Assembly: GCA_038046365.1 (NCBI GenBank)
Contig: JBBSWF010000136.1
Span: 3,681 to 67,680 of the forward strand
Length of the DNA stretch: 64,000 bases
Origin: Nanobdellota archaeon
Lineage (GTDB): Archaea; Nanobdellota; Nanobdellia; Woesearchaeales; JAGWAF01
Direction: 5' to 3'
Part shown: one piece after another, positions 2,958 through 53,609 of the stretch
Numbering within the stretch: the stretch's first letter is position 1
Layout: each line of letters starts with the position of its first letter
Notes under the pieces: model-generated
The model's database searches: none
What the model saw: the letters and a program-made list of their open reading frames with translations, nothing else
What the model was told of the DNA's origin: nothing
Made by a program: the position numbers and the translations under genes

Positions 2958-2991
2958 AAATCTATTTAAGCCAAGGCATGTGCGAAGAGAT

Positions 2992-7019: not shown

Positions 7020-7020
7020 C

Positions 7021-7581: not shown

Positions 7582-7620
7582 CTATTAAGGTATTTAAACA
7601 AGGGGCATTTAAACGTTTCT

Positions 7621-26898: not shown

Positions 26899-27555
26899 TC
26901 AACGGACTGACTTCTTCGCAGGCCTTGCGACAGACTGAGCCAACACAGTCGCAGTGAACAGGCTCGCGAAAACAGAGACCAGACCGATGAACAGCGAAGA
27001 CAGGATCAAGCCTGTCCAGCTCTCAGAAAAAATCGCCACAGCGGTCAAGGACAGGATGGTCGCGGCCACAGAGACCGCAAGCGACACCACCCAAGCGATG
27101 ATGAAATCTAGACTGAAAGCCCAACGGACGTCGTCGACTGGATGGAACGCCAAAGACCAAGAACGTTCTCTTGCGACCTTGAGCATCGACGCAGGGAACG
27201 CGATCGACCCTAAACCGAGCAACAGGTATGCCAAAGCAGACGACAGAGTCCTAAACGCAGGGTCCTCGAACGCCAGGACACCCGGAGACGACAAAACCAA
27301 TAATAAATATCCTGGCAGGACAGAGGCTGCCGCAAAAACAATGAAAAGAAGGCCGTCCTTAGCAAGCGACCAGAAACCCACCCAATCAGGAAGGCCCGGT
27401 CTCGCATCGATGACATGCCGCATCACCTCAAAGACATAACCATACACCCACGGGAATGAGACGAATGATATGGGCGGGAGAGAAAGAATGAAGAAAACTC
27501 CAGATTTCCATACATCCGAGAAAGGACGCTTTACCGCATCGATCAATGAAGGCAT
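26899..27555 (-). CDS. DUF4013-like polytopic membrane protein (paralog A)
   Basis: KRPFSDVWKSGVFFILSL...WVYGYVFEVMRHVIDARPGLPDWVGFWSLAKDGL fits the remembered DUF4013 N-terminal pattern. A paralog lies at 52962..53609. Confidence 0.55.
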   Translation of the reverse strand: MPSLIDAVKRPFSDVWKSGVFFILSLPPISFVSFPWVYGYVFEVMRHVIDARPGLPDWVGFWSLAKDGLLFIVFAAASVLPGYLLLVLSSPGVLAFEDPAFRTLSSALAYLLLGLGSIAFPASMLKVARERSWSLAFHPVDDVRWAFSLDFIIAWVVSLAVSVAATILSLTAVAIFSESWTGLILSSLFIGLVSVFASLFTATVLAQSVARPAKKSVR

Positions 27556-27781: not shown

Positions 27782-28786
27782 GTGGTAAGGTTGAATACCA
27801 AAAAGAGAGGACAGATAGCTATAGCTGCAGTGCTCGCGGCAGCCATCCTCGTCTTATTCCTCGTCGTGACACAGGTCATGAAAAAGCCCGTAGAGGTGAT
27901 GCCTGAAGCGACATCCGCGGCAACAATACGCGGGCTTGTCACAGCGTGCCTGCAGGAAGCGGCACAGGACGGCGCGTATCTCATCGGCAGGCAAGGAGGA
28001 TACCTTACGCTTGGCAATGACAGGTTCGAGATGGACGACATAAGCCTAGGCCCATTCGCGCACAGATCGAAGATCGTGGCACCAGGCATCGGACAGCTAG
28101 AGAACGACCTTGTAAGGCATATCGATTCGAAGCTGCCCCACTGCGTGATAGACGGACAAAGGGGGATCGGACAGAACCTCACATTCAAGACAACCAGATC
28201 CACAGTCCGCATCACACCCACACAGGTGGCGGTGACGACCGACTTCCCAGTGACTTCGACAGCAGGGGGACGGACAGAGACGGTGCACAAATTCTCATCA
28301 GTGATACCTGTACGGATAGGGATGCTGCGTAAGATAGCAGAGGACATACTTGCAGACAGAGTGTCTCATATAGGATTCTGGGACGTGACATTCCTCTCCG
28401 GATTGGCAGTGCCTGTGGAGATGCGAACGCTAAACGAGACATATGTGGTGTTCTCGCTGCTAGACAACGAGTCTTACACGCGGATCGAGGCGCCATATGT
28501 ATACAACGTCGCGCTGGATTCACCACCTAACGAGGCGCCGAGGATGATGCTGCCGGAGAAGTTCTCTTTGAAAGTCGGGCAGAGGTTCCAATACAAGGCG
28601 AGCGCAATCGACAATGATGAAGATCAGATCATATTCTTCGCGCCGAACCCATTGTTCAGGATGTCCTCGGAAGGAGTGATAGATTTCGTGCCGATGAATC
28701 CCGGAGTCACACCTGTGAAGATAGAGGCATATGATGACAAAGGAGCAGGATCCGCAAAGACAGTGCGGTTCGAGGTGTCGCCATGA
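27782..28786 (+). CDS. Protein with a class-III (type IV pilin-like) signal and a C-terminal cadherin/Ig-like domain
   Basis: The N-terminus is (M)VRLNTKKRGQIAIAAVLAAAILVLFLVV, that is, basic residues, RG/Q, then a hydrophobic helix. The C-terminus reads LPEKFSLKVGQRFQYKASAIDNDEDQIIFFAPNPLFRMSSEGVIDFVPMNPGVTPVKIEAYDDKGAGSAKTVRFEV, which is cadherin-like. Its stop overlaps the giant ORF start (ATGA). Confidence 0.6.
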   Translation: MVRLNTKKRGQIAIAAVLAAAILVLFLVVTQVMKKPVEVMPEATSAATIRGLVTACLQEAAQDGAYLIGRQGGYLTLGNDRFEMDDISLGPFAHRSKIVAPGIGQLENDLVRHIDSKLPHCVIDGQRGIGQNLTFKTTRSTVRITPTQVAVTTDFPVTSTAGGRTETVHKFSSVIPVRIGMLRKIAEDILADRVSHIGFWDVTFLSGLAVPVEMRTLNETYVVFSLLDNESYTRIEAPYVYNVALDSPPNEAPRMMLPEKFSLKVGQRFQYKASAIDNDEDQIIFFAPNPLFRMSSEGVIDFVPMNPGVTPVKIEAYDDKGAGSAKTVRFEVSP

Positions 28787-31700
28787 AGAGAAGGCATCTC
28801 GACCAGCTGATCGCACTGCTGATGATAATCCTGATAGTGGACACGCCGCTCGTGCAGGGAGCAGCGACCGCAAGCACACCTGCAGCGGGAGCAGGGGCGC
28901 TGGCGAAGACCCCCGAACAGGTGAAACAGGAACTGACCGATAAAAAAGAGGTGAAAGTCGAGAACAATATCGACAGTGTAAACAAAGCCCTAAAAGAAAC
29001 CGGAGAGATCCACAAAGACTCGAAGATAGACGTACCTCCAGAAGGGAACGTGGAGAGAACAAGCACAGGAGTCAGGATAACCGCAGGCACAGCTGAAGTC
29101 AACCTGGACAAAGGCGCAAAAGCCACGGTGAAGATGCAACAGACGCTGACTGGAAAACTGGTCGCGGGCGCAGTTGGGCTGGTCAAAGACTACAACCTCG
29201 CTCAAACATCAGCCGGACAGAAGGTCGCGGCGATCGCCGACCTAGTCGGATTCTCAGGCAGTTTCGAAGAAGGAATGACCGCAGCAGTGGGACTCCTTGG
29301 AGGACAGACACATACCACCGAAGTCGAATCAGAAACAAGGTCAGGAAAAAAGACCAAGAGAAAAATCAGCGGCGGAAAGACTACCGTAACACGGAAAGGA
29401 GATGTCAAAGTCAAGACAGATAAGGGGGAGCAGGAAACAGATATCACCGACTTCGAAGAGGGGACAGTCATTGGTGGAAACACGGCGATAGACAAGAAAA
29501 ACAATGCGATCGCATCATTCCAAGGACAAAATGTGGAACTCTCCACAGCTCCGGATGGATCATTGAGGATAAGCGGCAAAGGCGGCAAGGTCTCAGCATA
29601 TATCTCGGTCGAAGACAAGTATGGAGAAAAAGGGAGCTCCGGAACGCTCCGAGGAACGGCCACCACAACAGATGATACCGGTTGGATAACGATCGGGCAT
29701 AAGAACGGCGAGACCGTGATATCAGGGCAGAAAGCGACATTCGTTAGCACACCCAACGAAAAGGATATCGCGAACTACAAGCCATGGTCAGTGAGCGCAG
29801 ACGATTTCAGCGTAAAGATCGACAACCACAACCAGCTCTCCGAGGCCAGATTCAAGAACGGATACCTAGAACCTAACCCGGGAAGGAAGATAACTGATTC
29901 AGTCCCTCCCCTCAACAACGATTATGTCCAGTATTTCGCGAAGGGGACACGCGAACTGGCACTGAATCAGCAGTACTCCAAAGTCATCATCGATGAGAGC
30001 ATGTGGAAAGGCGCGGTGAAGGACGAATTCTTCAGGAACGGGCAGGGAGGGGAGAAGGACATCATCGAAGGAAAACAAAATGGATTCTTCGTGACAGCAA
30101 AAACAATCAAACCAGACCCTAATGAGCCTGGGAGCAAAGTGTCAAGGAGATACTTCATAGAGAACATAGATCCGAAATCAAAAGCAGGGTTCCTGGGATT
30201 CGTGACAAGCGAGGTCTACATCCCCGGAAAAGACGGCAAATCCATGATGGCAGATGGAAAACCCACCTCAATAAAATGGGGCGCCCTGATGGTCAAAGGG
30301 AAAGATGGAACCCTCAAACCCCACGTCGCGCTGATGGACGAGTCAATCAACACCGCGGCCCTGTTCAAGAAAAACCCTTCATCTATCGCACCGAATGTCG
30401 GAGTGGAGTTCGGGCCTTGGAAAGTCGACGCTGACAAGAGCGGGATAATGGCTGCCTCTGAGACAAAGCGCGGAAGGCAATATGGTTTATTCCTAGCTAA
30501 CGATGCGCTCACCGCGAAGACCACTGAATGGAGGGCGGAGTACACAAGAAGGGAGGATGCTGCTATCGCGGCCAAGCAAGCGGCTCTCAAAGCCCTAGAA
30601 GGAGGCGGCTTCACTTCTGCACAGATCAAAGAGGCGCAGCAGATCTTCGCCAAGTTGGGCGTGAAAAAGACGGCCGAAGACCTCAAGGTGATGTACTACC
30701 TCGACAAGAAAGACGCTAAGTCCGCAGCTGATATCGCCACTTCCCGGGACAACAGGAGGATGGTGGCAGATGCATTCTCACAGAGCACAGACCCCTCACA
30801 GCAGAAGACAGCGATGTCCATGTGGGGGGACCTGGCAAAGACCGCTGCGACAGAGAGAGAAGGAGAAGAGCTCCGGCGGAACATACTGAATCTCGACGGA
30901 AGACTGACCGGAAAGACCACTTTCGGGCAGGTGGACACACTCGCCGATGAGATCGCCCAAGGAAGGGCGAATTCAAAAGAGTATTACAAAAACGACCTCG
31001 AAGGATCGATAAGGCTAATGGACGCCAACCAGCGGCTGGCAGACGCAGTGAACTTCCAGGGCGTAGACACAGAAAAGAGACGCGAGGCAGACTACATCTC
31101 AGAGATACGTTCAGGAGGGGATGCGAAGGCAAAGACCTACGAGCTTGCGGTAGCATCGGATCGGATTGGATTAGAACAGGACGCCAAGGACAACTATGAC
31201 CTGGTCAGATCGCATCCCGATTATTATGGCGGGACCAATTCAGATATTGTCAAGAACGCCAATGCAAGATCTAAGGTAATCGGGGACCATCTCGAACAGG
31301 TCGTTGCGCGGCAACAAGCACAGCTCCCTGCAGAAGAGTTGAAGAAGCTCGGGAAAAGCGAGCTAGAAAAGATTGCGAAGACGCTCAGCGGAGGAAGCCA
31401 CTCAAACGAGATGAGAATCCTCGGAGAGTTGTACGAGCGGCGAGGACAGCATGATCTGGCTAAACAGACCTATGAATTAGGCCTGGTAAGCAGCGATCTT
31501 GGGGCGGGGAGCGCGGCTGAGAAGAGCCTTGGGCAAGGAAGGCAGACCGCGATGATCAACACCGCTGTAGAACAATTGCCCCGGCTCATCCAGAGCAACG
31601 ACTTCAAAGGAGCCAGGGCGCTGATCGAAGGCATCTCAAATGACCAGAAGCAAAAGATGGAAGAATACATCAACAATGCAGAGAACACCAAGAACACCCA

Positions 31701-34700
31701 AGACCTGATCAAGAACGGCAATTTCGCAGAAGCAGAAGCAACAGCAAAGAAGATCACCGACGCTAAGACAAGGGAGACCCTCCTTTTCAGAACATACGCG
31801 CTTAGCAACGACCTCACAAAGCTGACTGAATCCACCTCGTCATTCAAGGACGCAGGCGCGCGCGACGCAGCCTATGACTACCTAGCAACAACATATGAGC
31901 AGAGAGGACTCCGCGCCAGCGCAGAAGGGTTGATCGACAAGATCGCAGGCATCAGCCCGGAGGAAAAAGCGTTAAGAAAAGCCATGATGTACGCCGGGAC
32001 GGATGTCTCCAAGAAAGAGCATTTCCTGAAGCAGGCCGAAGCCATCTTGACCAGAGAAGGCGCGCAGAACAAAGAGGAGTACAACATGAATATGGCCCGA
32101 TATTCTGCGCTTATCGGGCGAAATAAAGATGTCGTAGATTCGTGGTATGCCGCAGCGATTGGAGACTTGCAAAAGGCAAAGCAAGGCGCCACACCAGAAA
32201 TCATCGCGAGGCTCACTGAACAGGAAAAATCATTCACCAAAGAAGTCCAAACCCTCCGAGCGATGGACACTAACACCCGGATATCAGAATACACAAAAAA
32301 ATTCAGCGAATTGGGGAGTCAGAGGGAAACCTTACGCAACCAAGAGGGATACCTGTGGAACAGCGAAGAGATCAGGAACAAGGTAAACACGGTGAATCAG
32401 AAGACCGCAGAGGCCCAAAAAGAATACGCAGCCTATTTCTCGACCCTTTCTTCAGCGTACATAGGCCTTGAAAGGTGGAGGATCGAGAACGGACAATACC
32501 CGGACACACCTCAGATCAAGCAGATGAAGCTCGATGCGCTGAAAGCGGCAGAAGAATCCCAGCGCATAATGAACAAATGGGCGAGCATCCCCGAGATCAC
32601 CTACCGGCCTGAAGAAATCGCGCTAAATGAATTGACAGCAAGGGGAAGAGAACTAACAACAGGCATATTCTTGAGCAATGAGATCGACGGAATCAACAAA
32701 GTCCAGAACGACCTGACCAAAGCGCTCCTTGAGAAACAGTATGGAGACAGGTATGCCCAGTACAAACTAGCTGAAAACGGAGGCGACATCCAGAAAACAC
32801 TCGCCGCGGTGAGGGATGACAAGACCAAATTCGACCAACAGCTAAAAAATCCTTACATGGATGATATCGGAAGGAACAACATTCGGACCTTCCAGACCAT
32901 CGTAGGCAACTCCCTAGGAACGCTTGAAGTCGCGACGAAACCGGACCTCAAAGTTGACTCACAGACATTCAGCTACCTGTCAGCGATGAGAGGGAACGAG
33001 ATCAATACAGTGTCCCGATTCAAGGAATTGAACCAAATCCCTCTGACTGACATCGAAAGACCGATGGTAGACCAACAGATATACCAGCTCAAAGCTTCGC
33101 AGGACGCGCTAAGCGCCAAGATGTATGAAAGGCTAGACACATACACGCCGACAGTAAGGGCATCGATCGACAAGATGACTGCCACGACCAGCGTGGCTGC
33201 AGGGGTCGTGAAGAACAATGAGATCACATCGTTCGACAAAGGGCTCTGGGGAACTGGTATAAGAAGATTCACGGATAATCTCTTGCAAGGGAGCATAGGA
33301 CAGGCATTCGAATCACTAGCGGACGTGAGCCTCGCCTCGACCTATTGGAGTTTAGGGAGCGATTATGACTCCACATACAGCACATACAACAAAGCTTTCA
33401 CAGACACAATCCAATCCTCAAAAGCAGCAAGACAGCTCAATGAGATCGCACAGATGTATCCCGGGGTCGATATCTACGACTCTAAGAATCTCGGCAAGCT
33501 CACCCCCGAACAGCAATGGATAGTCCAAGAAAGCATATTCAAGACCAAGCCACAATCCATCGAGGAGGCATACGGAGGAAAATCAGACAGCACATACTAC
33601 ACCTCAGGCGAAGCCTGGAAGGGCGCGACGAACCTCGGGAACCTCGGCAAGGTCGCGGCTTCGATGGCAGTCGCAGCAGTCACGACAGGAGGGCTCGGAT
33701 GGCTGGCTGGAGCGATAGGGTTGACAAAGAACGTCGGAACGACAACAACGGCTGCCGCGAATTTCCTGACTAACGCATTCGCATTCACGGTGGCAGACGA
33801 GGCAATCAATCAGATCGCCACAGGACGGTACGACGCGAGCAAGTTCGCAGATACAGAGTTCGGGACAAAGCTCGCCACAAACCTCGTGACGTTCGGAGCG
33901 ATGCATGCGCTAGGCTCTGCCACCAAACCTCTTTCATCTTACATATCCGGAGAAGGGAAGGCAGCGATCGAGGCAGCTTCGAAAGCAACCACCCAACCGG
34001 GAGGGAAAGCCGCGACCGCAGTGATCGAGGCAGCCACGAAACCGATCTCTCTGCCAAGAAGCATCCTTGCGAAGAGCACTGAGATAGGACTCACATCCGC
34101 AGGCATGGGAGCGGTCTTTGGAACCGCAGAGTATGTCCAAAGAAGACTCAATGGAGAGATCTTGACTGCTGAAGACATCCTCACAGGATACGGATCAGCG
34201 GCGCTGAACGGACTCATATTCACATCGCTGCACCAGGCAGCGACGACAGCAGTCACGACCGCCGGGACAAAGGTATCCTCGTATCTAACCGAGAAAGCCC
34301 TATCTTCAAGCGCGGAGAACGTGATAAAAACAGCCACCCAATTCGCCACGAAGATCGGCTTGGACCTTAGAGACCCGAACAAGGTCGCAGACACACTTGC
34401 GAGAGCGAAACTCCAGCAGGAAGGCATTAGCGCACCGACCCAGGAACAGGTCGCTCTAGCAAAATCAAGCATCCCTAAAGAAACAATCAACAGAGCCACC
34501 AATCCGACCGCCTCACCCGTCGAAAGGGCAGAGCCACTAAGACAGATAGGAAGATACCTCGCACGCACAATCGCTGAGTCCCAGATAACAGAAGCAGAAG
34601 TCCTACAGAAAGCAAAAACACTAGACAACAGGGGAGTGGGCCTCGAGAAAATGCCCGAGACCGAACGGGCTGGACTCATTGAAAGGGCTCGGCAAGGGCT

Positions 34701-37700
34701 TGTAGAGGAGAGGATACGCAACGACCTATCCCGGGCCAAGGGGAATGATGCGCTCGAGAGCCAGGTGAGAAAAGGGCTGACAGACGCGATCGAACAAGAG
34801 GCAGCCAAGCCTGGAGAAGCTATACTACCCTGGTCTGACATAACAGACTACCAGATGGCAGAGGCGCAATACAGGAAGCTGACAGGGCAGGCAGAGCTCA
34901 GTTCCATCGACCAGAAGATGTTCACACTAAGAGGCGCGTTGCCTGAAGAAGCCTTCAAAAAGATCATTGAGTCATCCGATTACCAAGGATGGATAGCCCG
35001 ACAAAAAACGATTGAGATGGACATCCTCAGCGCGAGACAGACCCTGGGCGAACTACGGACGACAGCAGAGGCACTCAAAGGCCCTGAAGCGACATCGACA
35101 AAGAAACCCCCACTTCAGGATTCCACGGCATACAAGGACGCCAGGGTCGCACTAGAGCCGACCAGGCTTGGAACGGAAAGAATGGTCCTCACGAACGAGC
35201 TCAGCGAGGCCAGGACAAGCGCAACTGACGCCCAGAGGGAACTCGAACGACTAGGATCGCTTGCAGACAAGCCCATCGAGAATGAAGCCGCATTCAAAGA
35301 GCAGGCACAATCAAGAGGGATGACATCTGAAGAAGCAAGGCAGGAAGCGACCAGGCAGGCCACGCAAAGGCTTGAAGAAGCCAACACCAAGAAAACACAG
35401 CTCGAGGCGCAGCTCAAAGAGAACGGCGACAATATACTGACAGCGAACCTGGAGAAGGCAATCCTCCAGAGTCCAGACAGCGCAGTCCCTGTGGCTGCAG
35501 AAGCCAGAGCAACATCCATACTCGCAGAGATAACCCGAGTGAATCAAGAGAAACAAAGGCTGAGCCAGACTGAGACCAGCGCCAAGGAACGCGCAAGACA
35601 GCTAGGTGAATACGAGCGAGCGCTAAACGAAGCGCTGCTCAAAGCACATGAACAGCTCAACCGCGCCAAAGCAGCGGTAGACAGCGAATCACCTGGAGTT
35701 CTCGACCTCCTTGGAAGAGGAGGCGCGTATCTCACGAGCAGAGAGAACCTGCTCAAGACGAAGAACGAACTCGAGACCGCCCAAGCACGGAAAATTTTCT
35801 CAGAAGACCTGATAAAACGAGTGGAAGACGCCAAGAAGAGCAGACAAATACCCAATGTCGAAGAGATCGCGCGGAAATTAGCGCAAGAATCCACAGACAG
35901 CAGATATGCCAGATTCGCGAATGACGCGGCAGAAGGCATCGCAAAGAAGGCCATGACCGCCGAGCAGACCATCGAATCAGCCAGAAGCGCGGCCGCCGAG
36001 AGACTTGATGAAGCTGAGACACGATACAAACTCGCAGTGAAACAATTCGCAGAAGGACAGAAACAACTGCTGTTCGACGATAACGCCCTTGCAGCGCAGG
36101 CAAGGATGGCAGATGCGCAAATGAATGCCGAATCCACAAAGGCGATGCTGGAGAAAGCAAAGACAGCGATGAGCATGGCGGAGACAAATTCAATCATCCA
36201 AGCCATGGACCTTGCCATGCTCATCGGAGACCCACAGATCAAAGGGATACTGGAGAACATCAACGGGATCTCCATGCTCGAAACTGGAAGATCAGAGGCA
36301 GAGACTGTAAAGGCCAAAGACCTCCGGAGAGAAGAGATAAACCGCATCGTGAACGAGAAGATGACCGGAATCGAGGCAGCGCCCGGATCGGCGGAGCACC
36401 AAGCAAAGCTCGAGACCGAGATCAAAGCCGCTGAGGCAGCGACGGCAGGAAAACTCACGGAATACTCACAACAAGCCAAACAGAAAGTGCAAGAAGCACT
36501 CCAGATGATGAAGGCAGAAGCAGCCCAATCCACACAGAAAATCCGGACCGCAGACGCGAAGAAAACATTGGAAGACATAGTCAAGGCAGAGGCTTCCAAA
36601 GGAAACCATGCCCAAATCGCGGACACTGTGCGCAGAGAGACCGGCCTGTCTAACCAAGACCTGGTGAAGCTCATGGGCAGCGAAAGGGGCAAAGCCCCAG
36701 TGATCGAAGAGCGCATACTCGAAGACAGGGAGTACAGCGCGCAAGAGAAGGACTCTCTTGAGAGACGAGTGAATGAGATTGAAATGAAGAGAAAATATTC
36801 CCCGCTCACCATCGAAGAGACTCTCGAACTCTACAGAGCAGACAAGCAGGCGAGGCTCTTGAGACTCATCGACGCAAAACAACAAGAAGTGTCCGACCTA
36901 GTATCCTCGCAAGGCAGGCAGGAAGGAGAGACAGCGACAATACTCGAGGCAAGGATATCAAAGGCTAGAAACGAGCTGGCGGACTTGCGCACAAAGAAGG
37001 AAGCGTCCATCAAGACATCAAACGAAAAGCTCAATCTACTACAGACACTAGAATTAAGAGGTTGGGAGTACATGACCAACAAAATGGGGGCCGGAGGCAG
37101 ACTGGCCAATTTCGACCCATTCCAGGTGGAAGCTGAATCAATCGCCTACGCACAGCACCTGATGGGAGCATCCACCGCCATGGCAGGAGGGAAATCCTCA
37201 TTCGTCGGACCCGGAATCCTAGAGACTTCCCGCTCAACACTTGGAATGAAAGGAGTCTTCCTGACCACGCAAGGACTCGCATTCGCGCAAAACCAGATAA
37301 TGGCAGAAAAGTTCGCGATGCTAGGCAGGAAAGTCTATTTCTTGGACGGGCTGGATAAACTGGCAGACCGGCTCACAAAGACACAAGAAGCCGACTTTGT
37401 TGTAGTAGGGGACCAGACCATAGGATTCTTGCTCACAAAGCTATGGGATCCCAACACGCCTGTGAACGAGCGGCTTGCCGCAAAGGGGATAATAGGCGAA
37501 CTCACCACCAACAGACACATATTCGCCGACGAAGCTGACAGCGTCTGGAAACCGAAAAATCGATATATCTCCGGCGGAAAACAGACCTCCCCTCCTGTCG
37601 AGAAGCTGGCTATCGCGTCGAGCGTAAACACAATATTCGAGAGGATGGGGCTGTACGTGCTAGACAAGAACGGAAATGAAGCCTACAGAGCGAAGATTGT

Positions 37701-40700
37701 GGACGGATCTGAACAGACTTCCATAAAGACTATAGCTTCTGCCACCTCCCTGCCTGAAAGCGAGATAATCAGATTCCTTGAAAACAGGAATTCCATCATC
37801 CGGGAAGGATTCAGCGACAGATCGCTTAGCGAGGCGGGATCAAAACTGAACGCGGAACAAGCGCGCAAGATCTATGATGCATTCACTGCGCTAAAAGAGA
37901 AGACAAAATTCAAGCAGGAATTCTATGATGAACTAGCCACACGGGTGGCGACAGAGACCGGGCTGACAACAGGCCAAGTCAAGGAGATATTTAGGAACCC
38001 CAACAAAGCAAACTGGAACGATGCCAAGGTCGCAAAGGCGATAGAATACCTCGAAGCCATCAATGAATTCGGCGATTTCATGGGCAAATACAAAGGCCAT
38101 GATTACTTCTACCTTGAATCAGAACAGAGAATAATACCAGGCAAGAGCGGCGCACCACAGAAGGACCAACGCTACTCAAACGCGTACACTGCACTAGCCG
38201 CGGAATATGTCGGAGCGAAAGCGTACGGACAGAAAGCCAACACCGAAGCGGTGAAGGTCAGCGGGAAAGCAGTCGAAGCAAGCCTACCCCAATTCTACAC
38301 AATGGCAGAGAGAGGAGGATCGTTTGTAACATCAATGACTGGAGATCCTGGCGCGGCTGAAGCCACCATGAGCCTAACATTAGGGATGAAATGGTCGGCC
38401 TCAGACGTCATAACCAAGAAGCTATTTGGAACCGACACTAAAGCCGGTGATTGGTTGGAGAGGGGGCTGTTGAGAGTGACAGGTGTAGGCGCCAACAGAG
38501 CGGATGCGCTAGATTGGATAGTCTCAAACGCCAAGACACTAGAAAGAAGCGGCGGAGTGGAAAACAAGAACAAGGTCTACGCGATAGTAAGCCTCCTCAA
38601 AGGACTTGAGAACAGGGAGATAAGCGAAAAGTTGACCAAGGATCCACGATTCGAACATATAACAACAGTCATCGAGAGCGGAACAGCAGAGCTAGGGACA
38701 TGGACAATCCGGACAAAGAGCGGCGAGGTATGGAGCGAGAAGAAGATCAGCGAGGCAGAATTCGCGGAATACAAGAGAAGATTCGCCAATGGAGAGATGA
38801 AAAACACACTGATTATCCTTGGAGAAGGCGCATCGAGAGGAACAGATATACCGATGTTAAGAGATATCCCTTGGATCGCGATAGGAGAAACTGAATCGAT
38901 AAAATCAGAAGCCCAGCAAATGATTACCAGGGCAGGAAGGGTGCCTGGGGAAGAACCCACAATCCACCTCATCGTATCCGGGGGCGCAAAGATAACGGCC
39001 GCGGAGCTGCGCAGGAGCATGGAATCCGCCGAATCCTATGCCAACCGAGCCAACGCAGTCGAAGGCGCGATATCTGCGCTCGACGGAATCGGGAACGACT
39101 TCTTCAACCAATACTCCGTGCGGAACATGATGGGCGCGGACTCCACTGCCTTCCGCGTCAATGAAGCACTACGAGACACATTCAAAGGAACCGCTGGAAA
39201 AAACCTCGAGATAACACCCGGGCTCGAATCTATCAAAGATTCGATCAAGAAGAAGATAGATTCAGCAGTCCAATTCTGGAAAGAGATACAGGAATTAAGA
39301 GAGAACCCCGACAAGATCAACGATCCGAAATACGCAAAGATAAAGAACGCCCTAAAGGAGACACTGTCAGACGAGATCTCCAAAGGTGGAGACACCCCCC
39401 AAGTTTACCGAGACGCTCTAAAAAGGTATTTCGATTCATTGAGCGCAGGCGAGGAAGCAAGGGCCAAGGCGCTAGCGGTGAACCCTGGAGAACTGAAGAC
39501 AAGGACCGGGGACGTGACCGCCGGCAAACCGCTCTTTGGCGCTACTGACTACGTCGAGTGGGCAGACACATTTAGCAAAACATTCTCTGAAAAAGACCTG
39601 CCGGCAGTCAGAAGCGGAAAGACAGCTGAAGCAGCCATAGTGATGCCTGCTGCGGAGGCACGGCTAAGACAAAAAAAGATCGCCCTCGACGAAATCATCC
39701 CTCTCGCAGAGAGAGCGGAACAATCAGCTGATGCTCAACGAGCGGCTCGCGAAGAGATAACCAGGATCATGCCAGAGCGAGAAGCGCCAGCAGTCCAGAT
39801 AGCACCAACAATAACATCAACATGGTCAAGCTCATACCTGTCCCCTGCCCTCACCAGGGCGGCAGGATACGCAAGCGCGATCGGACTATATGGAGTGGGA
39901 ACCACACTATCAAACGCCGCATCGGCGGCCAGCGCGGCGACTACAGAAACATCAGCAACTCTACTTACAGCATTGTCCCACGCATCAACAGACCCGGCAA
40001 CCCTTGGAGTAGCAATCCTAACAGCCGCGACAGCAATAGCATGGACGCCACTGCGAAACGCAGCGACAGCATTCCTTAAGCCAACTGCTGAAACGATAGC
40101 AGAAGGCCTTGAAAGCCCAAATGAAGCGCTGCGACAAGCAGCGCAAAACAAACTCACCAAGATGGGGAATGTGGGCGCACGTGCCGCGGCAAAAAAACTC
40201 GCGAGCAAAAACTCGCAGACAAGAGAGCAAGCCTACGAACTCCTCATGCAATTCGGACAAACTGCAAACGGAGCAGAACAGCAAATAATGGACGCCGTAA
40301 CCGACCCGACTGAAACAATCGATAACAAACAAAGAGGAATACAGGCGCTGCAATCGATGAAAACGACTCAATCGATTAACACGCTAAAGAGAATCGTAGA
40401 CGGAACAAACAAAGAAGCCGCATACATGGCAAAGCTCGCGCTTGAGGTCATGGGAATTGACGAGACTCCTGTGAAAGCGGATTTCCCAGTCGAGGCAAAC
40501 AAAGAACAGACTGCGGCAAGGCCTGAGAACCAAATCGCGGCTGGAGAATCCGTTACAATCAGAGGGAGCACGCGGACAATTGAGCGCGCCAAAGAAAGGC
40601 TTGAGAAAGAGAACATAGAAATCAAGATCGGCCAAAGAACCATATCAATTATCAAAGACGAAAACGACGGACAAATCAAGATCCTCTCAGAAGGAAAGAG

Positions 40701-43700
40701 CCTAACACTCAACCCCGGCGACTCTATAACAGCCGGCAGAGATCCACAAAACACTATAGATATCAGCGATTCACAGGTCTCAAGAAACCATCTCAGGATA
40801 AATTATGACAAAGAGTCAGACCTGATAACCATCACAGACCTGCAATCAAGCAACGGATCGACAATAACCTCAAAAATTGAAACAAAAGCACTAACAACAG
40901 AAGAAAAAACAAAAACATTAGCCCCCGAAGAAAAAAGCGTCATTGGATTATACACCCGAGTCTCTGATGCGATATACTCCCCGGTTGAGCAAATGCCAAA
41001 AATCAGCCAGGATGAAATAATCATTGACTCAACGTTTGGCGACCCGAAGAAAGCGTATGACAAACTCAAGCAAACCGGATTACTGCCAGACATCAAAATA
41101 GTAGCAGAAGGATCCGAATACCTGATATCCCCGCCATTCCTACTAAAAGGAGTCCGGCCTGCGCATATTGTATTTGTAAAAACACCTGGAAACTACAAGT
41201 ATCACATGCAGGTGGCATACAGAAGCAATTCAGCCTCAACATACAGGCTACTGCCCTGGATCGCACGATATCCAATCAAAGGAAAAGAGACCGACTGGTA
41301 TGTTAAAGGGATCATGATCCCGCAAGGAAGCGACAGACCGACATCAGCAGACGAAAACATGCTCAATTATCCATTTGTGATCACCCATGAGATGAACAAG
41401 AGACTGTTGCGCGAGAAATCTATTCAAGCAGAGCCGCCGCTTCCGGTAATAACCAGCTTGAGTCCATACGGAGGAACATTTTTGCCGCAGGGAATAGAAA
41501 CACTGAAAGGCTTAAGCAAAGAAGTGAGAACCGAGACATTTGACATAAAGAACGATCCTCCAATCGACATCGGAACACAATCCCAACCGGAGATAGATTT
41601 CGTCATAAGAGACGCGGAAATCGCGTTTGGACGAAACGCAATGCAGTTATTTATCAGATCAAAATCCGGCCAGAAAATATACCGATTCGTACAAGCAGAA
41701 TATCTTGTCCAAGACGCCGCAACAGGAAAGAAGAGATTTATAACAAAGACCTCGCTTGCGGGAATAGAAGAAATCGGAAACGGCGTAAATGATTATGGGC
41801 TAAGGCACAAACAAATAGCACAATCCAACCCCATACTCAACATCGGAGGAATCGAGTACGACTCTCAATTACAAGAATTCCTCTACGAACACCCTGTGCG
41901 CGGCGCAAGACAGGAGCGCGTGCTTGAACAACTGCCAGATGGAACCACAAAGCCAACGCCATATACAGCAGTGCCAAACGAACTTGAGCCGCTGATACAG
42001 CAAGCCGATCAATTCTTCAAAAAGTATGGCCGAAGGAAAGAACCCGAAGGTCCGCTCTCATCAATATCCATCTCTCAAGAAGAATCGCCAGCCGAATCGC
42101 GGCCAACAGCCGAGCTATACGAACAAATCTCAACAGCAGTTCAACAGCCAACAAAGGAACCAAAAGACGACGCAATCGAAGCGCTTGACAAGGCCGCCAG
42201 AGACGCCCTGAAGCAAGGCGATGAAGCGGCACAGAACGCGATCCGGACTCTAACCCGGATAAACACAAGAATGTCCGCAAACACCATCATCAAGCTACTT
42301 GAAGACAAAATATCAGACGCGACCATCATCAAAATACTTACAGAAGAGACAAGCGGCCTTAAGCCTTATGCGCTCAGCGAAGAGATGGAACGCGTAAAAA
42401 ACCTCGGCGTACTACCCAAGCTAACAAGCGAGTCAGCAGATACGCAGAAAGAAGCAGTCAGATTCCTTGGCGTAAACGGCAATGGATTGGACCTACCACG
42501 ACTAACTGAACTTAAAACCACAACACAAGACCCAGAACTATCCAGAATCATCAAGGAGTCCATCGACTCAATTCGCGGTAGAATGGTTGAGCTATCACTG
42601 CAGTCCTTGCCTGCAGGGATCAGAACCAGAATATCCATGAAAGACGACTCAACAACAGACATGATAATTGGAAAATACGACCTTACAAAAAATCAAATCA
42701 TAGGACAAGTTGGAGGAGAGAGAAAAATCCTGAACTCAAATGAAATAAAAAAAATCCAGATAGAAGGAGAAGATTATATGATACTCGGTGAAAGACGTAC
42801 ATTCAAAACAAAAAACAAATACGTGACGCTCCCAATCCACCCAGATATAGACATAGTCCCAGAACTCAAGGAATTTGGCAAAGTGCGTGCGCCAAGCGCC
42901 AAACCGACCGAACCTGAGAGAGCGCCAGCACGATTAATCGAAGGAGTAATATCAGCTGCATCGAATATTCCAGTCATCGGAATCGCGGCAGGGATATTCG
43001 GACTGCCTGGACTCGCAGAGGCAGGACAAGCCATGTCGACGGCAGCACAAGCCGCGGCGAGCGCGATACAAGTAGTGCCGGACTCGCCGGGGATGATGAT
43101 GGCGACACTTGCTGGCGGACTGCTCTTCGCGGCAGGAAGGAGGATATACAATCGGTACTTCGCAGCGCCAGTCGTGGAACTTCCGACAGGACCGCCGATC
43201 ACAATAACAATCCATGGGATAGATGGGCGAGAACGATCAGTCACATTCGAACAGTTCACGGCAAAAAATCCCATCGACATCAATCCGATCATAGACGCGC
43301 TATCTTCTGAAGACACGTGGCCAGAAGCAGCCAGACTGATAACAGATGCATTCCAGGAAGAAGGACACGAAACAGGGATCATCCGAGGAGCAAACGGGGA
43401 GATAATAGTGCACCTCAAAGAGACCCTCCCGGCAATAGAAACCGCGAACGCCTTAGAAAAACAGACCGGAATCAAAACAAACTGCGGAACAGGATCGACG
43501 AATTGCGCGGGGCATGAGACTAAAGATGAGATTGAGCTTTTGATTGGGAAGATGGGGAGTGGGGATCCAGAAGAGGTAAAAATTGTATCAGATCAGCTTA
43601 CACGTCTTGGAGCAGTAGCGGTTCCTTCCCTTATCCTCGGTGCAAAAAATCCCAACATCCTAATCCGAGAATCTTCTTTAGTCGTCCTTGGAAACATAGG

Positions 43701-46700
43701 CGGCAATCCTGCGATCTCTACTTTATTGGATGCCATCAACGATAAGGATGATAAAGTCCGGCTGACTGCTGCTCTCGCCCTAATGAAAATTGACCCTTCG
43801 GTGATCGAAGGTATGGGCGGTAATTTTCTCAAGGTAACATTGACCCTAATTGATATATTGGCTCGCACGCCTGAAGAAAATAAACAGAAAATCCTAACAA
43901 GAGTGACTTCTCTTGGCGAACCGGTAGTGCCCTACTTCATCGTTGCTCTCTCAGCAAGAAATCCTGATTATGCCTTTGAGGCATACCATTCACTAATTGC
44001 AATAGGAAAACCAGCCGTCTCTCCGCTCAAGTCTTTGTTTCTCAATAAGAACTCGGGTATCAGGGATACCGCTGTCTTGGCATTGGGTGAGATCGGCGCT
44101 CAATCCGAAGCAGACGAAAGCCAGAGATCCGGCCCGCCTTACACTATAAGACTTGCATCCGAAATCAGAGTGTTTCTGGAAGACAACCTTGATGATTTCG
44201 ACCCTGGTGAGGTTAGAGGAGCAGTCTTGTATACACTTGGACAACTCAAGTTAAACACTTGGACGGTCATAGACCAAATGTTAAATGGTCTGACAAGGTC
44301 GGATCCATATGTTAGAATCATGGCTGCGCGAGGGCTGGGGGAGTTGGGGAACAAACATCCGACCATCTTGAATGCATTGATCCGCTATATGGACGAGGGC
44401 ACATTTATGTTTGAGGGAAGCATTAATGACCGAAACGCAGCAGTGAAATCGATAGGGAAATTAGGAGTGGATATCCTTCCGGACATAATCGGAAAATACC
44501 TCAAAGCCTCTGACGAGAAGTCCCGGCACAACCTATTTTTAGTCATGATAGCGATCAAGAATCTGAACCCGGATAAAAAGGAGCGGATATTTGAAGTGAT
44601 AAGACAGTCCGGCCTGCCTCAGAATTTCAAAGAGCTTTGGAATGAATTGTCAGCTAATGATTACGCATTAATAAACGAATATTCCGAATTGATCTCCAGC
44701 CAAGGCACATCAAGGACCGGTCTGGAAAACGCCATAGACACCGGGCTACCTGTCAAGAGGTCCTCAAGATCAGACGGACATTATAAAGACGACGATTTCT
44801 CAAAACAAAAGGATCTATTGTCTTTGACAACACTCATCGTCCTGTCAGAACTGATCCATTACCTCCATACTGGACAAGGAAAGAGTGACTTGGGGCAGAT
44901 CATTTCGCGAGACCTTTTGGATTGGGGAAGCGAAGCTGGCGGATTGGTCGTATATAAGAATGGGAAACTATCTTTTGAGCGATATGAACCTCGGTGCAGG
45001 GGTGATAATTGTAGGTATATAATCTCTGAAAAGTTGGACGCTGACAGTCCCCATGCCTTATTTTCTTGGCATAATCATGCAACTAAATTATTAGGTAACG
45101 CCGAGATTGCCGGTCCGAGTGGATGGCACTCCGCCCAGGATGTATCTGGAGGCGGGGATATTGGAACGGCAGAACAAGAGAATAAGGACGGTGTCGTGAT
45201 AACATATCTTGGTGAGAATAAATTCAATGTGAATTACTACACTTATGACGGGATAGTTATCAATCTCGGCGATTATTCATGGGATACTTCAAAAGTGCCA
45301 CTCTTAACGAAAGAAAAAATTGGCGAACTTGAGAAGGTATACTCTGAAAATGTGGTCAGAAGATCTGATGTGATCGATAATGAACTTGAGCGACTGTTAA
45401 TTACGACCAAGAATGATTGCGATAGCGGCGCTATCCCAGGAGCTGCATGCAGCGCCATGCAGACTGCACTTGAGACAACCAATTATGACGATAAAGTTAA
45501 TAAAATCATCATGGCGCAATCAGCATTGGCGACTCCCAGCATTGTAGCGCCAGATATTTCAAAACCACCCACAGATGCAGAGAAATCACTCAATCAAAAG
45601 TTCGGAACTCTCATCAATAAAGCTCAAAGGCCTTTAGATGAATCGGTCTTAGAAGAGACCCTTGCTGCGAGGGATTACACCACCCCCCAGACCATGCCGG
45701 AAGAAACAGCAGCGCCAGAGGTTACCACGCAACCAGTGACGGAACTGCTGACTGGACTACCTGGACTAGTTGAAGCAGGACAGATAACATCATCGACGAT
45801 GCAGACAGCGCCGGACTCGCCGTTAGCAGTGATGGCCACTGTGACAGCAGGACTTGCGATCACAGCAGGAAGAAGCATCTACAACTACTTCTCGCCTATT
45901 GGGGACACCGCAGGATCCAGGACAGCGCGGATAGGGATGATCGCCGCAGGCGCGCTGCTCGCCGCTCCTGCGACTGCATGGGCAGGACAAATGCTGATGA
46001 GCTCGCCGGACATGGCGATAAGCATAGCGCAGACATCGACGAACCCGCCTGCGCTTGCAGCTTCGATGCTGATGGGAGCGCTCGGGACGCTGATAGGGAC
46101 GGTGTTTGGAGGATACAAGATACCACCATCGCCGATAAGACACGTGAACAAGAGGATCGGACCCGGGGACAGGTATTGGAACCCGACGGCGAGCGAGAGC
46201 AACGTCGACACGCTACGGGCGCAAAACGATCAGGGAGAACTACTTGCGGCGATAATCAAGACCGGAGAGATAGGCGAGCTGGTGACTGCGTACGCATCAG
46301 TCGATGAAACAGGACAGATAACAGCCTTGACCGCCAGGAAGGAAGAGCTACCTCCGGCAGACATTCACCTATCTATAGTATGGGATGGACAGCTTGAGAG
46401 ATACACAGGAGTTGAGGCGCTGACAGCCCTGACATCAGCCGACCAGAGCAAGATAGTCGATGACATCGCCACAGCAGCGGCACAAGCTAACACGATGATG
46501 GAGAAGAAAGGCGGGGCCAGCATACTCGCGCTAGTTCCGACTATAGAAGCAAAAGAGAGAAGCATCGCAACAGCCATAGCCGCGGGCGCAGTCGAGACCG
46601 CCAGATCAGTCAAGATAAACTTCGCAGTAGAGGGATTTAGCGGGCCACAAATAGTACGAGACTCTTCACGGAGGTATCTGATAAGCCAATGGCCATCATC

Positions 46701-49700
46701 AGAACCGGCGCTGATCCGAGGACTTAGTGCGTTAAAACCCGCCGCAGTAATAGAAAGCGCAGCCATACTTGGAGAGATGAGGTCAAAAGCCGCTGTGCCA
46801 CGCCTTGGACAAATAGCATCAGACCCGAAAAGATGGGCAAACACCAACGCGATCGAAGCGCTCGCAAAGATCGACACGCCAGAGGCGCAAGAACAGATAA
46901 TAAACGCAATGAACAACGCACAAGGACCAAAGTACAAAGCGAGAAGAATGTTTGATGCCACCCAGCTATCAAAGACCACTCCAAACCCGCAGACACACGA
47001 AAGAGCGCTAAACACACTGATCAAAGAATACGATGCAGATGCGAAGACGGATACAATGATCCAAACCGCTAAAATCATTAGAAACTACGTCAAAGAAGCT
47101 GAAAAACATGGACTCAAGAGTCCAAGCGCGATAAAATACCTGAAAGATAGACTACTGACAGAATCAGCCCAATCGTTCTATTGGGTCGACATCCACATTT
47201 CAGACCAAATCGCACTGATCATCACGCTTGGAGAAATCGGACCACAAGCAGAACCAGCGACTGAAAAGATACTGAGCTGGATAGAAGGGGCAATAGCAAG
47301 CGGAGGAGTATACTACCAAGATTTAGATAGTGCATACGAAGCCATCGGCGCAATAAAACCACAATCGAAACAAGACATAGACCGAATAAGAGATATGATC
47401 TTGAAAAACCAAAACGTATATGGAGATCGTAAGAGCACCGATCTGATTAAAGGCCTGATACCTGCACTTGGAAAAATTGGAAAAGCCGCAACACCAACAT
47501 TATTAAAATTACTAAGACCCCAGACACTGCCTGAGCATTCTGAGCTTGTAAAAAGATCTCTCGTAAGCATTGGCGCGGATGCCGTAGCCCAAATAATACC
47601 GGAGATAGCCACCGTTGAATCGGAGATAGCTAACCTGAAAAGACAGATTGGTAGATATCCTACAGACATATATCTGTCTGTACGCGCCTCTGACTTGCAG
47701 ACGGCAAAAATTTCTCTGATAGATGTGTTAGGACTCATGAAAAATCAGGCAAAGGGAGCAATAGACCTGCTAAAGACACAACTCGAACAGTCAAAGAAAT
47801 CTGGAAATGTCGATCTTAACAAACATATAATCCAAGCAATCGGCGAGATCGCACCAGAAGAAGCCATCGACTCGCTGATAGACACAATAAAAACCCAAGA
47901 GAAGCTGAAACAGCTAGCAATAGAACAAATTGGCAAGATCGGACAAAATGAACAGACCCCAAAAACCAGGGAAGCCGCAACAAAGGCCACACAACCACTC
48001 ATAGACGTCATCAAACAGTCACTTGATCGCTCCACAGAAGAAGGTCCTCCACCAGGCCGGGAATACACGATACCTGCAATAGAATCACTAGGGAAGATAT
48101 CCACTCAATCCGAGAAAAAACAACAGATAATCGAGTTCCTCACCAAAGCGCTCGACGAATCCAACAAAGCGCATAATACCGCGCTCGCGAAGGAAAACTA
48201 CGCGATACTTGAGATCCAAGCCACGGTAATCTCGGCGCTCTCGGAAGGAGGGAAGGACGCGAAAGCGGCGATACCAACCATAATCGACGCGATAGAGACC
48301 GCTTCAAGCAGATTTGAGACCGAGCCCCACTCGGGCAGCCTGGTGATAAATGCGGCCGCGTCAGCGATACCAAAGATAGGATCCGACTCCAGGACTGCCG
48401 CGGCCATCGAACGGGAGCTAGCCAAGAATGAGGACTGGAAGATACCCGCCAGCGAGATAGGCAGGGCACGATTAGAGATGGCGAGGCAGGCTAACTCGGA
48501 AGCCCTACGCAAGGCGCTAAGCGACCTGGCGCAGAAAGGCGACATAAACGCAGCTATGGCGATCCATGATGAGACCGCGCTCATGAACGCAGGAGACGAG
48601 GCGGTGAAAGCGCTGCTTGAGCGTGTGTACCAGATCAACAAAGACACCCGGGAACCACTGAAAGCGCAATGGGAGGTAGAGATGATCGCCAAGATAGGAA
48701 CAGAGCAGGCGGTCGCCTCACTCAAAGAACTCATTCGAGGAGACGACGGACTGGCAAACCTAGCTTTCTATTCAGCAAGAGTGCACGCGATACGAGATAT
48801 AGAACCAGCGGCACTAGCTTCGGTTTCAAGGAACCTAGGCGCAAAGGAAGACACCCCGCAAGCACAAGCAAGGAGCGGGGCGATAGTATACCTGGTTTTG
48901 ATGGGAAGCGAAGAAGCGGCAAAAGAACTGACTGACATGATGCTGCGCGAGGAAGGCGAATCGAGAGTCAAGACGCAGCTCAAGAATGCTGCAGACACTA
49001 TCAGAGAAGACGCCAGAAGGGAGAGTGACATCCGATCACAAGAGGAGCTTTCGAAAAAGAAGGCGCTGGCGCTCGCTGACCGTTTCTCAAAGAAAGATGG
49101 CATCACAGGATGCGCTGGCGGAGAATGCATAGAGACCGATGGAATAGCCGCGCAGATTCGGCAGATGACCGAAGCAGGGCACATATCAGAGCTTATGGAC
49201 TACCTCGAGAGCCTATCTGAGGAGATGGGCAACTTTGAAAGATCAGTCGGAATAAAACAAGAGATCAGACCGGAGATCGATGACACCCTCACAGACTTGG
49301 AAACTACCCGCGTCATGGTAGAGACTCACACGAAACAGCTGCAAAAAGAGTTCTCGCTGAGTGACGGACAACAAAAGAAGATGATGCTTATGTACCTGGC
49401 AAGTCCTGAGGATCTGAGGTCGCAACTAATATCATTTTGGCACGATATACTAAATCCGATGAATATAGTAACCGGTTACACATATATGCTAAGAGAGGAC
49501 AAAGAAACACAAAAATTACTTGAACGAGAGCTTACCATCCAAACTAACAAACTGAACGAGCTTGTAGAGATGGTCCGGTCAGGAAAGGAATGGGATTTCA
49601 GCAAACAAAGTCGACCTGGATTACTACTACTATATGCTCACCAAATTCAGGCGCTTAATGAGATATTAACAAGGAACTATTTAGCAATTCAACCATACCG

Positions 49701-52961: not shown

Positions 52962-53609
52962 CTAATGCGATCCGTGATAAGCCAAAGCAAACAGCGTCAT
53001 AGAGACGATCCCGCTATACGCCCCAAGGACGCCACCGAGCAAGGCAAGGAAAGACATGCCGACCCACCCTGGAAGGAAAGTCCAGGTGCCGACCCAGAAC
53101 AGGATGCCAAAGACCGCCAATGCAAGGACCAAAGACGATGCCGCGGCTATCAGATAGTCCTTGGTAAAAGCGACAGATGATACCTTGTTGAGATAGAACG
53201 CGAACTTCCAGTCACCTTCTGCCGCCGCTACAAGGATGGCAGCAGCCAATAGATAGCACGCGAGGAGCAGCAGTATGGACCCTACGAGCAGCGTCGGCAA
53301 GAAAGGCTGGTCCGCGACATCGAACGGATTCCTGCCCGGATAAGAGAAAACAGTGATCAAGAGGCCAGGAAGCATGAAAAAAAGGACGACTGACATCGAT
53401 GCCAAGCCATTGAGGACAAGATGGAGCAAGTTGAACCATCCAGGAAGGCCATCCTCACCAGCCAACGAAGCCTCGACACACTCGAAAAGATAGCCCCAGC
53501 TGAGCGGGAACAGGATGTAAGACCAGGGGAAGATCGAGAGGAAAGCCTGAATGGAGAACCGCCTCCAAGAGGAGAACGGCCGCTTGAAGGCTGAGGCGAA
53601 ATCGAGCAT
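52962..53609 (-). CDS. DUF4013-like polytopic membrane protein (paralog B)
   Basis: FKRPFSSWRRFSIQAFLSIFPWSYILFPLSWGYLFECVEASLAGEDGLPGWFNLLHLVLNGL is collinear with 26899..27555. Confidence 0.55.
   Translation of the reverse strand: MLDFASAFKRPFSSWRRFSIQAFLSIFPWSYILFPLSWGYLFECVEASLAGEDGLPGWFNLLHLVLNGLASMSVVLFFMLPGLLITVFSYPGRNPFDVADQPFLPTLLVGSILLLLACYLLAAAILVAAAEGDWKFAFYLNKVSSVAFTKDYLIAAASSLVLALAVFGILFWVGTWTFLPGWVGMSFLALLGGVLGAYSGIVSMTLFALAYHGSH

Follow-up and report, generated by a model that had tools for sequence, protein, structure and literature searches.

A probable SecA-lineage ATPase module within a giant membrane protein of a DPANN-like archaeon

The giant open reading frame and its SecA-like module

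The window analysed here is a stretch of 64,000 nucleotides from a Nanobdellota archaeon (assembly GCA_038046365.1, contig JBBSWF010000136.1, positions 3,681 to 67,680). It carries a giant open reading frame (ORF) of 7,703 aa, intact across 23 kb, and an original prediction made from the letters alone had likened part of its product to the motor ATPase SecA. The comparisons and the predicted model reported below support its identification as a superfamily 2 (SF2) ATPase with two RecA domains, for which the closest solved structures are those of SecA. The ORF and the parts of the module, with the short motifs that mark them, are the following (NBD, nucleotide-binding domain; PPXD, preprotein cross-linking domain; pLDDT, predicted local distance difference test).

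28783..51894, + strand: giant ORF, 7,703 aa, bearing the SecA-like module, with no interruption
36580..39717, + strand: whole conserved module, aa ~2600-3645, as delimited by tblastn against homologous loci
37090..37578, + strand: RecA-like domain 1 (NBD1-like), aligning to SecA 77-227, pLDDT 70-90
37111-37125: Q-like motif FDPFQ of the NBD1-like domain
37183-37200: Walker A AGGKSS of the NBD1-like domain (Lys2804)
37528-37539: Walker B DEAD of the NBD1-like domain
37564-37578: SecA-like YISGG of the NBD1-like domain
37579..38331, + strand: 251-aa insertion at the SecA PPXD position, between motifs II and III
38098-38214: C-terminal part of the insertion, HDYFYLESEQRIIPGKSGAPQKDQRYS...ALAAEYVG, aligning to the C-terminal part of the SecA PPXD
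38332..38967, + strand: return strand with motif III SMTGD (38332-38346), then RecA-like domain 2 (NBD2-like)
38821-38850: motif V GEGASRGTDI of the NBD2-like domain
38914-38940: motif VI QQMITRAGR of the NBD2-like domain (Arg3383, Arg3386)
38968..39717, + strand: helical extension of ~250 aa after NBD2, collinear with the SecA scaffold helix and kept in 9 relatives

The seven SecA-like peptides named in the original prediction are all present, in the order given there, between aa 2777 and 3390 (window 37111-38952):

aa 2777-2806, window 37111-37200, + strand: FDPFQ...AGGKSS
aa 2822-2836, + strand: MKGVFLTT...
aa 2871-2884, + strand: DFVVVGDQTIGFLL
aa 2913-2932, + strand: IFADEADSVWKPKNRYISGG
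aa 3184-3202, + strand: SMTGD...
aa 3347-3358, + strand: GEGASRGTDIPM
aa 3367-3390, window 38881-38952, + strand: IGETES...RAGRVPGE

An insertion of about 300 aa had also been proposed at the place of the SecA preprotein cross-linking domain; the place is right, between motifs II and III, while the length measured between ISGG and SMTGD is 251 aa. The first half of this insertion was modelled with low confidence and includes extra sequence specific to the window copy. The NBD2-like region aligns to B. subtilis SecA 477-585, also in the global alignment described below, and the helical extension that follows it forms a long helix at the end of the AlphaFold model.

Distant relatives of the module

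Scanned exhaustively with phmmer, 1.84 billion cluster representatives gave 11 matches to the segment aa 2734-3440, namely one 182-aa fragment of the same gene and ten distant relatives (20-30% identity, E-values from 3e-37 to 1e-7), which lie mostly within proteins of 1,700-7,800 aa. Comparison of the giant protein with six homologous loci by tblastn delimited a shared span running from aa 2593-2794 through 3442-3645 (E 1e-15 to 5e-51), and only aa ~2600-3645 of the giant protein are common to the distant relatives. Conserved columns of the family include a Gln upstream of the P-loop (F..R..Q), the Walker A motif GGK[TS], the DE of Walker B, motif III [MS]TGT (TGD in the window copy), motif V GEGG..GTN (GEGASRGTD in the window copy) and motif VI Q...R..R. 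The Q, GK and DE residues are invariant in a 7-sequence alignment, and the same holds over 7-10 distant relatives for Walker A, Walker B and motifs III, V and VI (positions Q, GK, DE, TG, G and Q..R..R in the family of ten). Since the catalytic positions have been kept at 20-28% overall identity, the module is probably an active ATPase.

The relative P0007 (GCA_040960765.1; locus L007, 10001-33535) is a 7,844-aa bacterial protein, with Rho and a LysM-M23 peptidase among its neighbours, that has both the divergent module (aa ~1525-2400) and a second, Pfam-positive SecA module (aa ~7100-7840; SecA_DEAD 2e-25, P-loop_SecA 6e-6, and weak PP_bind and SW). The family profile matches this Pfam-positive module with P 0.0016 in NBD1 only, including the segment DEAD-x8-(V/Y)ISGG. 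Because the two modules are distinct within one protein, we regard the divergent family as a separate and more divergent subfamily. In P0004 (GCA_016215315.1; locus L091) the module is fused to a SpoIIE/PP2C domain and a Ser/Thr kinase (Pkinase), and in P0006 (GCA_053533315.1; locus L009) to SpoIIE/PP2C; both genes belong to tandem arrays of giant genes (5,210-6,862 aa), and in L091 one gene of the array encodes FHA and HEAT domains. The domain set of these two loci resembles what the window holds in a single ORF. Neighbouring genes gave no assignment of P0002 (JGI 3300033153), P0004 and P0006 to bacteria or to archaea, and there is no synteny between the other genes of the window and the homologous loci.

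A word-indexed search of 5.8 billion proteins gave no match with the segment as query, and with the family profile only the 182-aa piece of this gene came up. Phage records contained no tblastn match to the segment, and no additional relatives came from the genome, viral and metagenome contig collections. The family is a rare one, present in giant proteins of bacteria and of at least this archaeon.

Comparison with SecA

The E. coli and B. subtilis SecA sequences used for comparison agree with their PDB entries along the entire length (1844 and 1714 bits). The SecA alignment for the profile tests consisted of these two proteins, five enterobacterial SecAs and one giant-protein SecA module, and the resulting profile is shallow (effective number of sequences, Neff, ~1.9), since a SecA-seeded homologue search gave only Enterobacterales at 90% identity or above. 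Local profile-profile alignment of the family with SecA (hhalign) scored 39.0 (P 0.0012), placing family columns 40-399 on SecA 77-350; it spans FDxQ and the P-loop, the DEAD box and ISGG, and runs into the C-terminal part of the PPXD (HDYFYLESEQRIIPGKSGAPQKDQRYS). As controls, 60 shuffles of 15-column SecA blocks with the motifs kept scored 22.3±3.7 (maximum 32.3), and the reversed alignment 23.3. The global alignment scored 52.2 (P 1e-9) against 5.1±3.6 (maximum 16.9) for 50 shuffles of block order, and also places the helix after NBD2 on the SecA scaffold helix. Every pairing proposed in the original prediction of motif-by-motif collinearity with SecA was recovered in this global alignment, with a score above the shuffles. 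A chance resemblance to SecA was ruled out by the shuffle controls. Taken alone, neither the C-terminal segment of the insertion against the SecA PPXD (P 0.029, z ~2) nor the helical extension against SecA 569-688 (hhalign, P 0.053) reached significance.

The similarity to SecA is missed by single-sequence searches and by searches of a hidden Markov model (HMM) against sequences; at this level the evidence is weak to moderate, and the profile-profile comparison is clearer. Hhalign comparisons of single sequences were noisy (P 0.02-0.2), the segment aa 2734-3440 matched nothing relevant in Pfam, NCBIfam or the PDB sequences, and the family profile found no SecA among the PDB sequences, its only hits being a DEAD-box protein at E 0.6 and a Rossmann-like match due to chance.

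Canonical SecA, whose ATPase responds to preprotein, SecYEG and lipids and powers the passage of polypeptides through SecY, is bacterial or organellar (plastid), and archaea use SecYEG without SecA. Compared with canonical SecA (PDB 1TF2, 3JV2, 6ITC, 5K9T), the module has the same two RecA domains and the same order, spacing and register of SF2 motifs, with the catalytic Lys, the Asp-Glu pair and the arginine fingers in place. Both have FDxQ before the P-loop, DExD followed by ISG, the motifs MTG(T/D), RGTD and Q..R.GR, a large insertion that separates motifs II and III and contains a DY-hairpin-R(W/Y)S segment, and a long helix after NBD2. The differences are considerable: identity to SecA is ~12-15%, below detection by every Pfam SecA model; the insertion at the PPXD position measures 251 aa in the module and ~155 aa in SecA; neither a wing domain nor a two-helix finger nor a C-terminal Zn/SecB-binding tail is detectable in the module; and it is embedded, at aa 2770-3645, in a 7,703-aa archaeal membrane protein, whereas SecA is a soluble protein of ~900 aa.

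Predicted structure

An AlphaFold2 model of aa 2734-3440 was built from the 11-sequence alignment, and its pLDDT reaches 70-90 in the RecA cores and in the C-terminal half of the insertion. Foldseek comparison of the model with 350,542 PDB chains supported the likeness to SecA seen in the original prediction, as ranks 1-21 are all SecA (E 5e-10 to 1e-5), comprising SecA or SecA2 of B. subtilis, E. coli, M. tuberculosis, T. maritima and C. difficile. The best match outside SecA is RIG-I (E 7.7e-6), followed by LGP2, UvrB, DinG, FANCM and Snf2-type proteins. RIG-I-like proteins, UvrB and DinG also have a two-RecA core with insertions and are weaker structural matches (E 8e-6 to 1e-4); their insertions are at other positions, they bind nucleic acids, and they rank below all SecA structures.

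SecA-like modules in other giant proteins

West-Roberts et al. (2023) described divergent SecA_DEAD and preprotein-binding domains as common in bacterial giant proteins (bioRxiv 10.1101/2023.11.21.568195). In giants of Omnitrophota ('Archaeovorins') and Actinobacteriota the SecA domains lack the wing/scaffold and stand beside transmembrane regions, and export of the giant itself was proposed (bioRxiv 10.1101/2023.11.21.568195). A 2026 preprint also reports an architecture cluster with SecA_DEAD among long Omnitrophota proteins. These bacterial modules share with ours the embedding in a protein of >5,000 aa with many hydrophobic segments, the long-branch divergence and the absence of a recognisable wing/scaffold, and the function proposed for them, export of the protein itself or of a partner, is the same. 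They differ in being detected by Pfam and in having been reported in bacteria only, whereas the present family is Pfam-negative and its host archaeal, and their partner domains are glycosyl hydrolases, peptidases and dockerins rather than the FHA, HEAT and kinase/phosphatase types found here; P0007 is such a bacterial giant protein, with both module types. Kamneva et al. (2015) defined 'secondary SecA_DEAD' proteins from Planctomycetes, Verrucomicrobia and others, in which all or most of the wing/scaffold is lost (PMC4452313); some of them are very large, and a secretion-related role was proposed (PMC4452313). Unlike the window module, they are bacterial, detectable by Pfam and encoded in conserved loci with type I secretion-like genes, none of which are present in the window.

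We found no report in the literature of such a SecA-like module in archaea. The novelty implied by the original prediction was nevertheless overstated, given that divergent SecA_DEAD/PPXD domains had already been described in bacterial giant proteins. The finding is best described as new in its archaeal occurrence and unusual divergence, SecA-like motors in giant proteins being already known.

Natural variants of the giant gene

Two metagenome contigs from ENA (ERZ1300416 NODE_40 and ERZ2470813 NODE_46), 80.6 and 92.5 kb long, match the window with 99.96-99.97% identity along the 20.5 kb compared around the giant gene. They differ from it over this length at 6 and 8 positions, of which 4 and 5, respectively, fall within 37748-38969, a clustering in the module region with P 3e-4 to 9e-4. 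The variant sites are the following.

37748 (both contigs), 37786 (one contig) and 38775 (both contigs), + strand: 1-bp deletions
38227 (GGA>TGA) and 38969 (missense), + strand: substitutions

In these contigs the giant gene is called as four pieces of 2,994, 94, 182 and 4,365 aa, the last of which begins at Met3340, just ahead of motif V; the frameshifts and the stop are confined to the module and the rest of the ORF is intact. The reading frame of the window aligns with the distant relatives, which indicates that the window copy is the unbroken form. Should the variants prove real, the motor would be dispensable or counter-selected in that population. Chimerism of the contig as a source of the giant gene was ruled out, as two independent contigs match the window around the gene.

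Membrane setting, partner domains and archaeal neighbourhood

Membrane segments of the giant protein were called by a hydropathy heuristic alone. The features of the giant gene that bear on its location and partners, and the ORF directly upstream, are these.

27782..28786, + strand: 334-aa ORF directly upstream of the giant ORF, its stop overlapping the ATG of the giant ORF
28807..28863, + strand: N-terminal hydrophobic segment, aa 9-27 (signal peptide or anchor; Kyte-Doolittle 19-residue mean 2.17)
33652..34269, + strand: upstream hydrophobic cluster, uncharged stretches aa 1624-1648, 1650-1671 and 1799-1829 (hydropathy)
39859..40053, + strand: downstream hydrophobic cluster, aa 3693-3757 (hydropathy)
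40729..40869, + strand: FHA domain, aa ~3983-4029 (Pfam E 4e-9)

The two hydrophobic clusters said to flank the module do exist (aa 1624-1829 and 3693-3757), though at a distance: the module begins ~950 aa after one and ends ~300 aa before the next. With two further clusters at aa 4721-4766 and 5681-5778 the giant protein has four internal clusters in total. Downstream of the module Pfam detects the FHA domain, many HEAT repeats and a weak HisKA signature (aa ~6887-6931, E 0.008). By eye, aa ~6887-7230 (window ~49441-50500) contain an H-box-like FWHDILNPMN and a G2-box-like GHGIGLFG, which together with the HisKA signature suggest a histidine-kinase module near the C-terminus. No nucleic-acid-binding domain was detected by Pfam anywhere in the giant protein. 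The overlap of the stop of the 334-aa ORF with the ATG of the giant ORF makes it probable that the two are co-translated. The product of the upstream ORF is anchored in the membrane at its N-terminus; its C-terminus looks cadherin/Ig-like by eye, and Pfam gives no match.

Genes in the window include those for an Lrp/AsnC regulator, an ATP-dependent DNA ligase, a Hel308-type helicase bearing the archaeal domain 4, and a seryl-tRNA synthetase. In a comparison with 185,579 species genomes, the synthetase has its best matches in metagenome-assembled genomes of Woesearchaeota/Nanoarchaeia (57-63% identity). Judged from these genes, the neighbourhood of the giant ORF is archaeal and the host is a DPANN-like archaeon. 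PADLOC defence models matched nothing in the window. Two paralogous membrane proteins of the DUF4013 family flank the giant gene (26899-27555 and 52962-53609, both on the - strand; Pfam E 2e-11 and 8e-11). The ORF for the Hel308-type helicase (58397-59962, - strand) begins at the second RecA domain and encodes Helicase_C, HTH_61, the archaeal domain 4 and HhH; this gene may be truncated or split, as there is no ORF for a first RecA (DEAD) domain upstream on that strand. AT skew is strongly positive (0.26-0.40) throughout the giant ORF (window 28000-52000) and 0.02-0.27 elsewhere, and the long antisense ORFs in the giant ORF (e.g. 35544-36812, 422 aa) are probably artefacts of this skewed composition.

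Interpretation

We propose that the module is a divergent SecA-lineage ATPase that acts on unfolded polypeptide at the membrane, a reading of derivation and function combined to which we assign a probability of about one half. Its two parts stand differently: derivation from SecA is likely, whereas actual translocation of polypeptide, including the ATP-driven polymer threading suggested in the original prediction, is argued by analogy and put forward only tentatively. According to this proposal, window 37090-38967 would encode RecA domain 1, an insertion at the PPXD position and RecA domain 2, followed by the helical extension, in an SF2 protein of SecA lineage. The module would sit in a cytoplasmic stretch of a multi-pass giant membrane protein, as it must if it is to have access to ATP, and would be held at the membrane by the hydrophobic segments of the giant protein itself. 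There the ATPase could grip and move unfolded polypeptide, as SecA does and as has been proposed for the bacterial giants. Candidates for the polypeptide moved are parts of the giant protein itself, a second molecule of it, and partner proteins, for instance the probably co-translated membrane protein encoded upstream.

Several observations weigh against this proposal. The Pfam SecA profiles (SecA_DEAD, SecA_PP_bind, P-loop_SecA and SecA_SW), the kind of check that the original prediction asked for, match neither the segment nor its relatives; for SecA_DEAD (PF07517) there is no match at E≤10 for the window segment and none at E≤1 for the 11 family members. The family HMM run against SecA sequences with decoys gave ~0-6 bits and no significant separation. 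As the profile test fails and the PPXD and wing/scaffold are unconfirmed, the module should not be filed as a member of the SecA family. The AlphaFold2 model is of moderate quality (pLDDT 59.8; predicted template modelling score, pTM, 0.37), and its template modelling (TM) scores to SecA are ~0.3, values as low as one would expect when a multi-domain model is flexible; modelled by itself, the insertion (pLDDT 49) matched no fold, PPXD or other. No Sec genes are present within the window. Within the protein, the motor lies C-terminal to the probable ectodomain and so could not help its co-translational export in cis, and the HEAT, FHA and histidine-kinase-like domains that follow the motor are normally cytoplasmic. 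Finally, the module is broken in two natural variants, which speaks against its being indispensable.

A serious rival is that the motor acts in trans, or has been repurposed for a regulatory or mechanical role in a scaffold rich in FHA, kinase and phosphatase domains. In the second case, the module would be a SecA-derived motor that no longer translocates and serves as a regulated mechanical or remodelling ATPase in a membrane-associated signalling or scaffold giant, for example in the control of a cell-cell contact apparatus of an episymbiotic archaeon. We consider this rather unlikely, even though it would fit the FHA domain, the many HEAT repeats and the weak histidine-kinase signature in the same polypeptide, the fusions to SpoIIE/PP2C and, in P0004, to a kinase, with a giant FHA+HEAT gene adjoining in the P0004 locus, as well as the absence of a detected SecA wing/scaffold model and the dispensability of the module in the two variants. 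Nothing ties ATP hydrolysis to signalling, however, and the insertion at the PPXD site, ISGG and the scaffold-collinear helix have been kept over very long evolutionary distances; such retention of SecA-specific architecture is easier to explain if substrate clamping was retained too. The variants lend themselves also to a more extreme explanation, that the module is a decaying, non-functional relic kept just as a spacer, with frameshifts and a stop restricted to it in two near-identical contigs and, in the window copy, a Walker A serine in place of threonine and a motif III that reads TGD instead of TGT. This we regard as highly improbable: no interruption occurs in the 23 kb of the window copy, relatives at 20-28% identity keep every catalytic position, and GKS is a normal variant of Walker A.

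It could also be argued that the module is a generic SF2 helicase or translocase, or an NTPase of DUF3638/DUF3645 type, and that its likeness to SecA reflects common SF2 ancestry and a coincident insertion. The order of motifs I, II, III, V and VI is indeed common to all SF2 proteins, the only helicase-type Pfam signals in the family are generic and likewise count against the proposed SecA lineage (DEAD at 0.0033 in one member and ResIII at 0.12), and the best helicase found by the family profile in PDB sequences is the DEAD-box protein mentioned above. To the same side belongs the viral structure library BFVD, in which the model is best matched by DUF3638 proteins from giant viruses of the Klosneuvirinae (E 4e-10 to 1e-8, ~750-840 aligned columns), ahead of phage Snf2 helicases; as these models match as well as SecA does, 'closest to SecA' holds relative to solved structures. 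To our knowledge the DUF3638 family is uncharacterised and without a solved structure. Still, the likeness to these proteins, which belong to a eukaryote/virus context, is structural only: no family member matches Pfam DUF3638 or DUF3645, and no nucleic-acid-binding domain accompanies the module. Moreover, 21 SecA structures rank above every helicase, by about four orders of magnitude; the alignment to SecA runs through elements that are not SF2 motifs (FDxQ, KGVxxxT, GF(D)YL, ISGG, the PPXD DY-hairpin-RxS and the scaffold helix); and NBD1 resembles that of the Pfam-positive giant-protein SecA module. A generic SF2 identity is thus unlikely. As a separate observation, the DUF3638 or 'ubiquitinyl hydrolase 1' proteins of giant viruses may belong, as NTPases, to the same SecA-like branch of SF2.

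Significance

In the textbook account of protein export, SecA belongs to bacteria and organelles, and archaea have no post-translational Sec motor. With a conserved, apparently active SecA-lineage ATPase in an archaeal giant membrane protein, the association of giant proteins with embedded SecA-like motors, noted only recently, reaches from bacteria into archaea. In its most far-reaching form, which we consider decidedly unlikely, the archaeal giant protein would be a self-contained ATP-driven device for post-translational export, possibly feeding effectors or its own segments at the contact with a host cell; if true, some archaea would have acquired or retained a SecA-type motor, and no SecA-class translocation motor would have been seen in Archaea before. 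The subfamily has been missed by standard annotation, with ~10 cluster representatives among 1.84 billion proteins, none of them matched by Pfam SecA models. It offers a handle on how membrane proteins of several thousand residues are assembled in tiny episymbiotic cells and on whether SecA-type clamps work without the wing/scaffold apparatus, and the natural variants in which only the module is broken provide a ready-made comparison.

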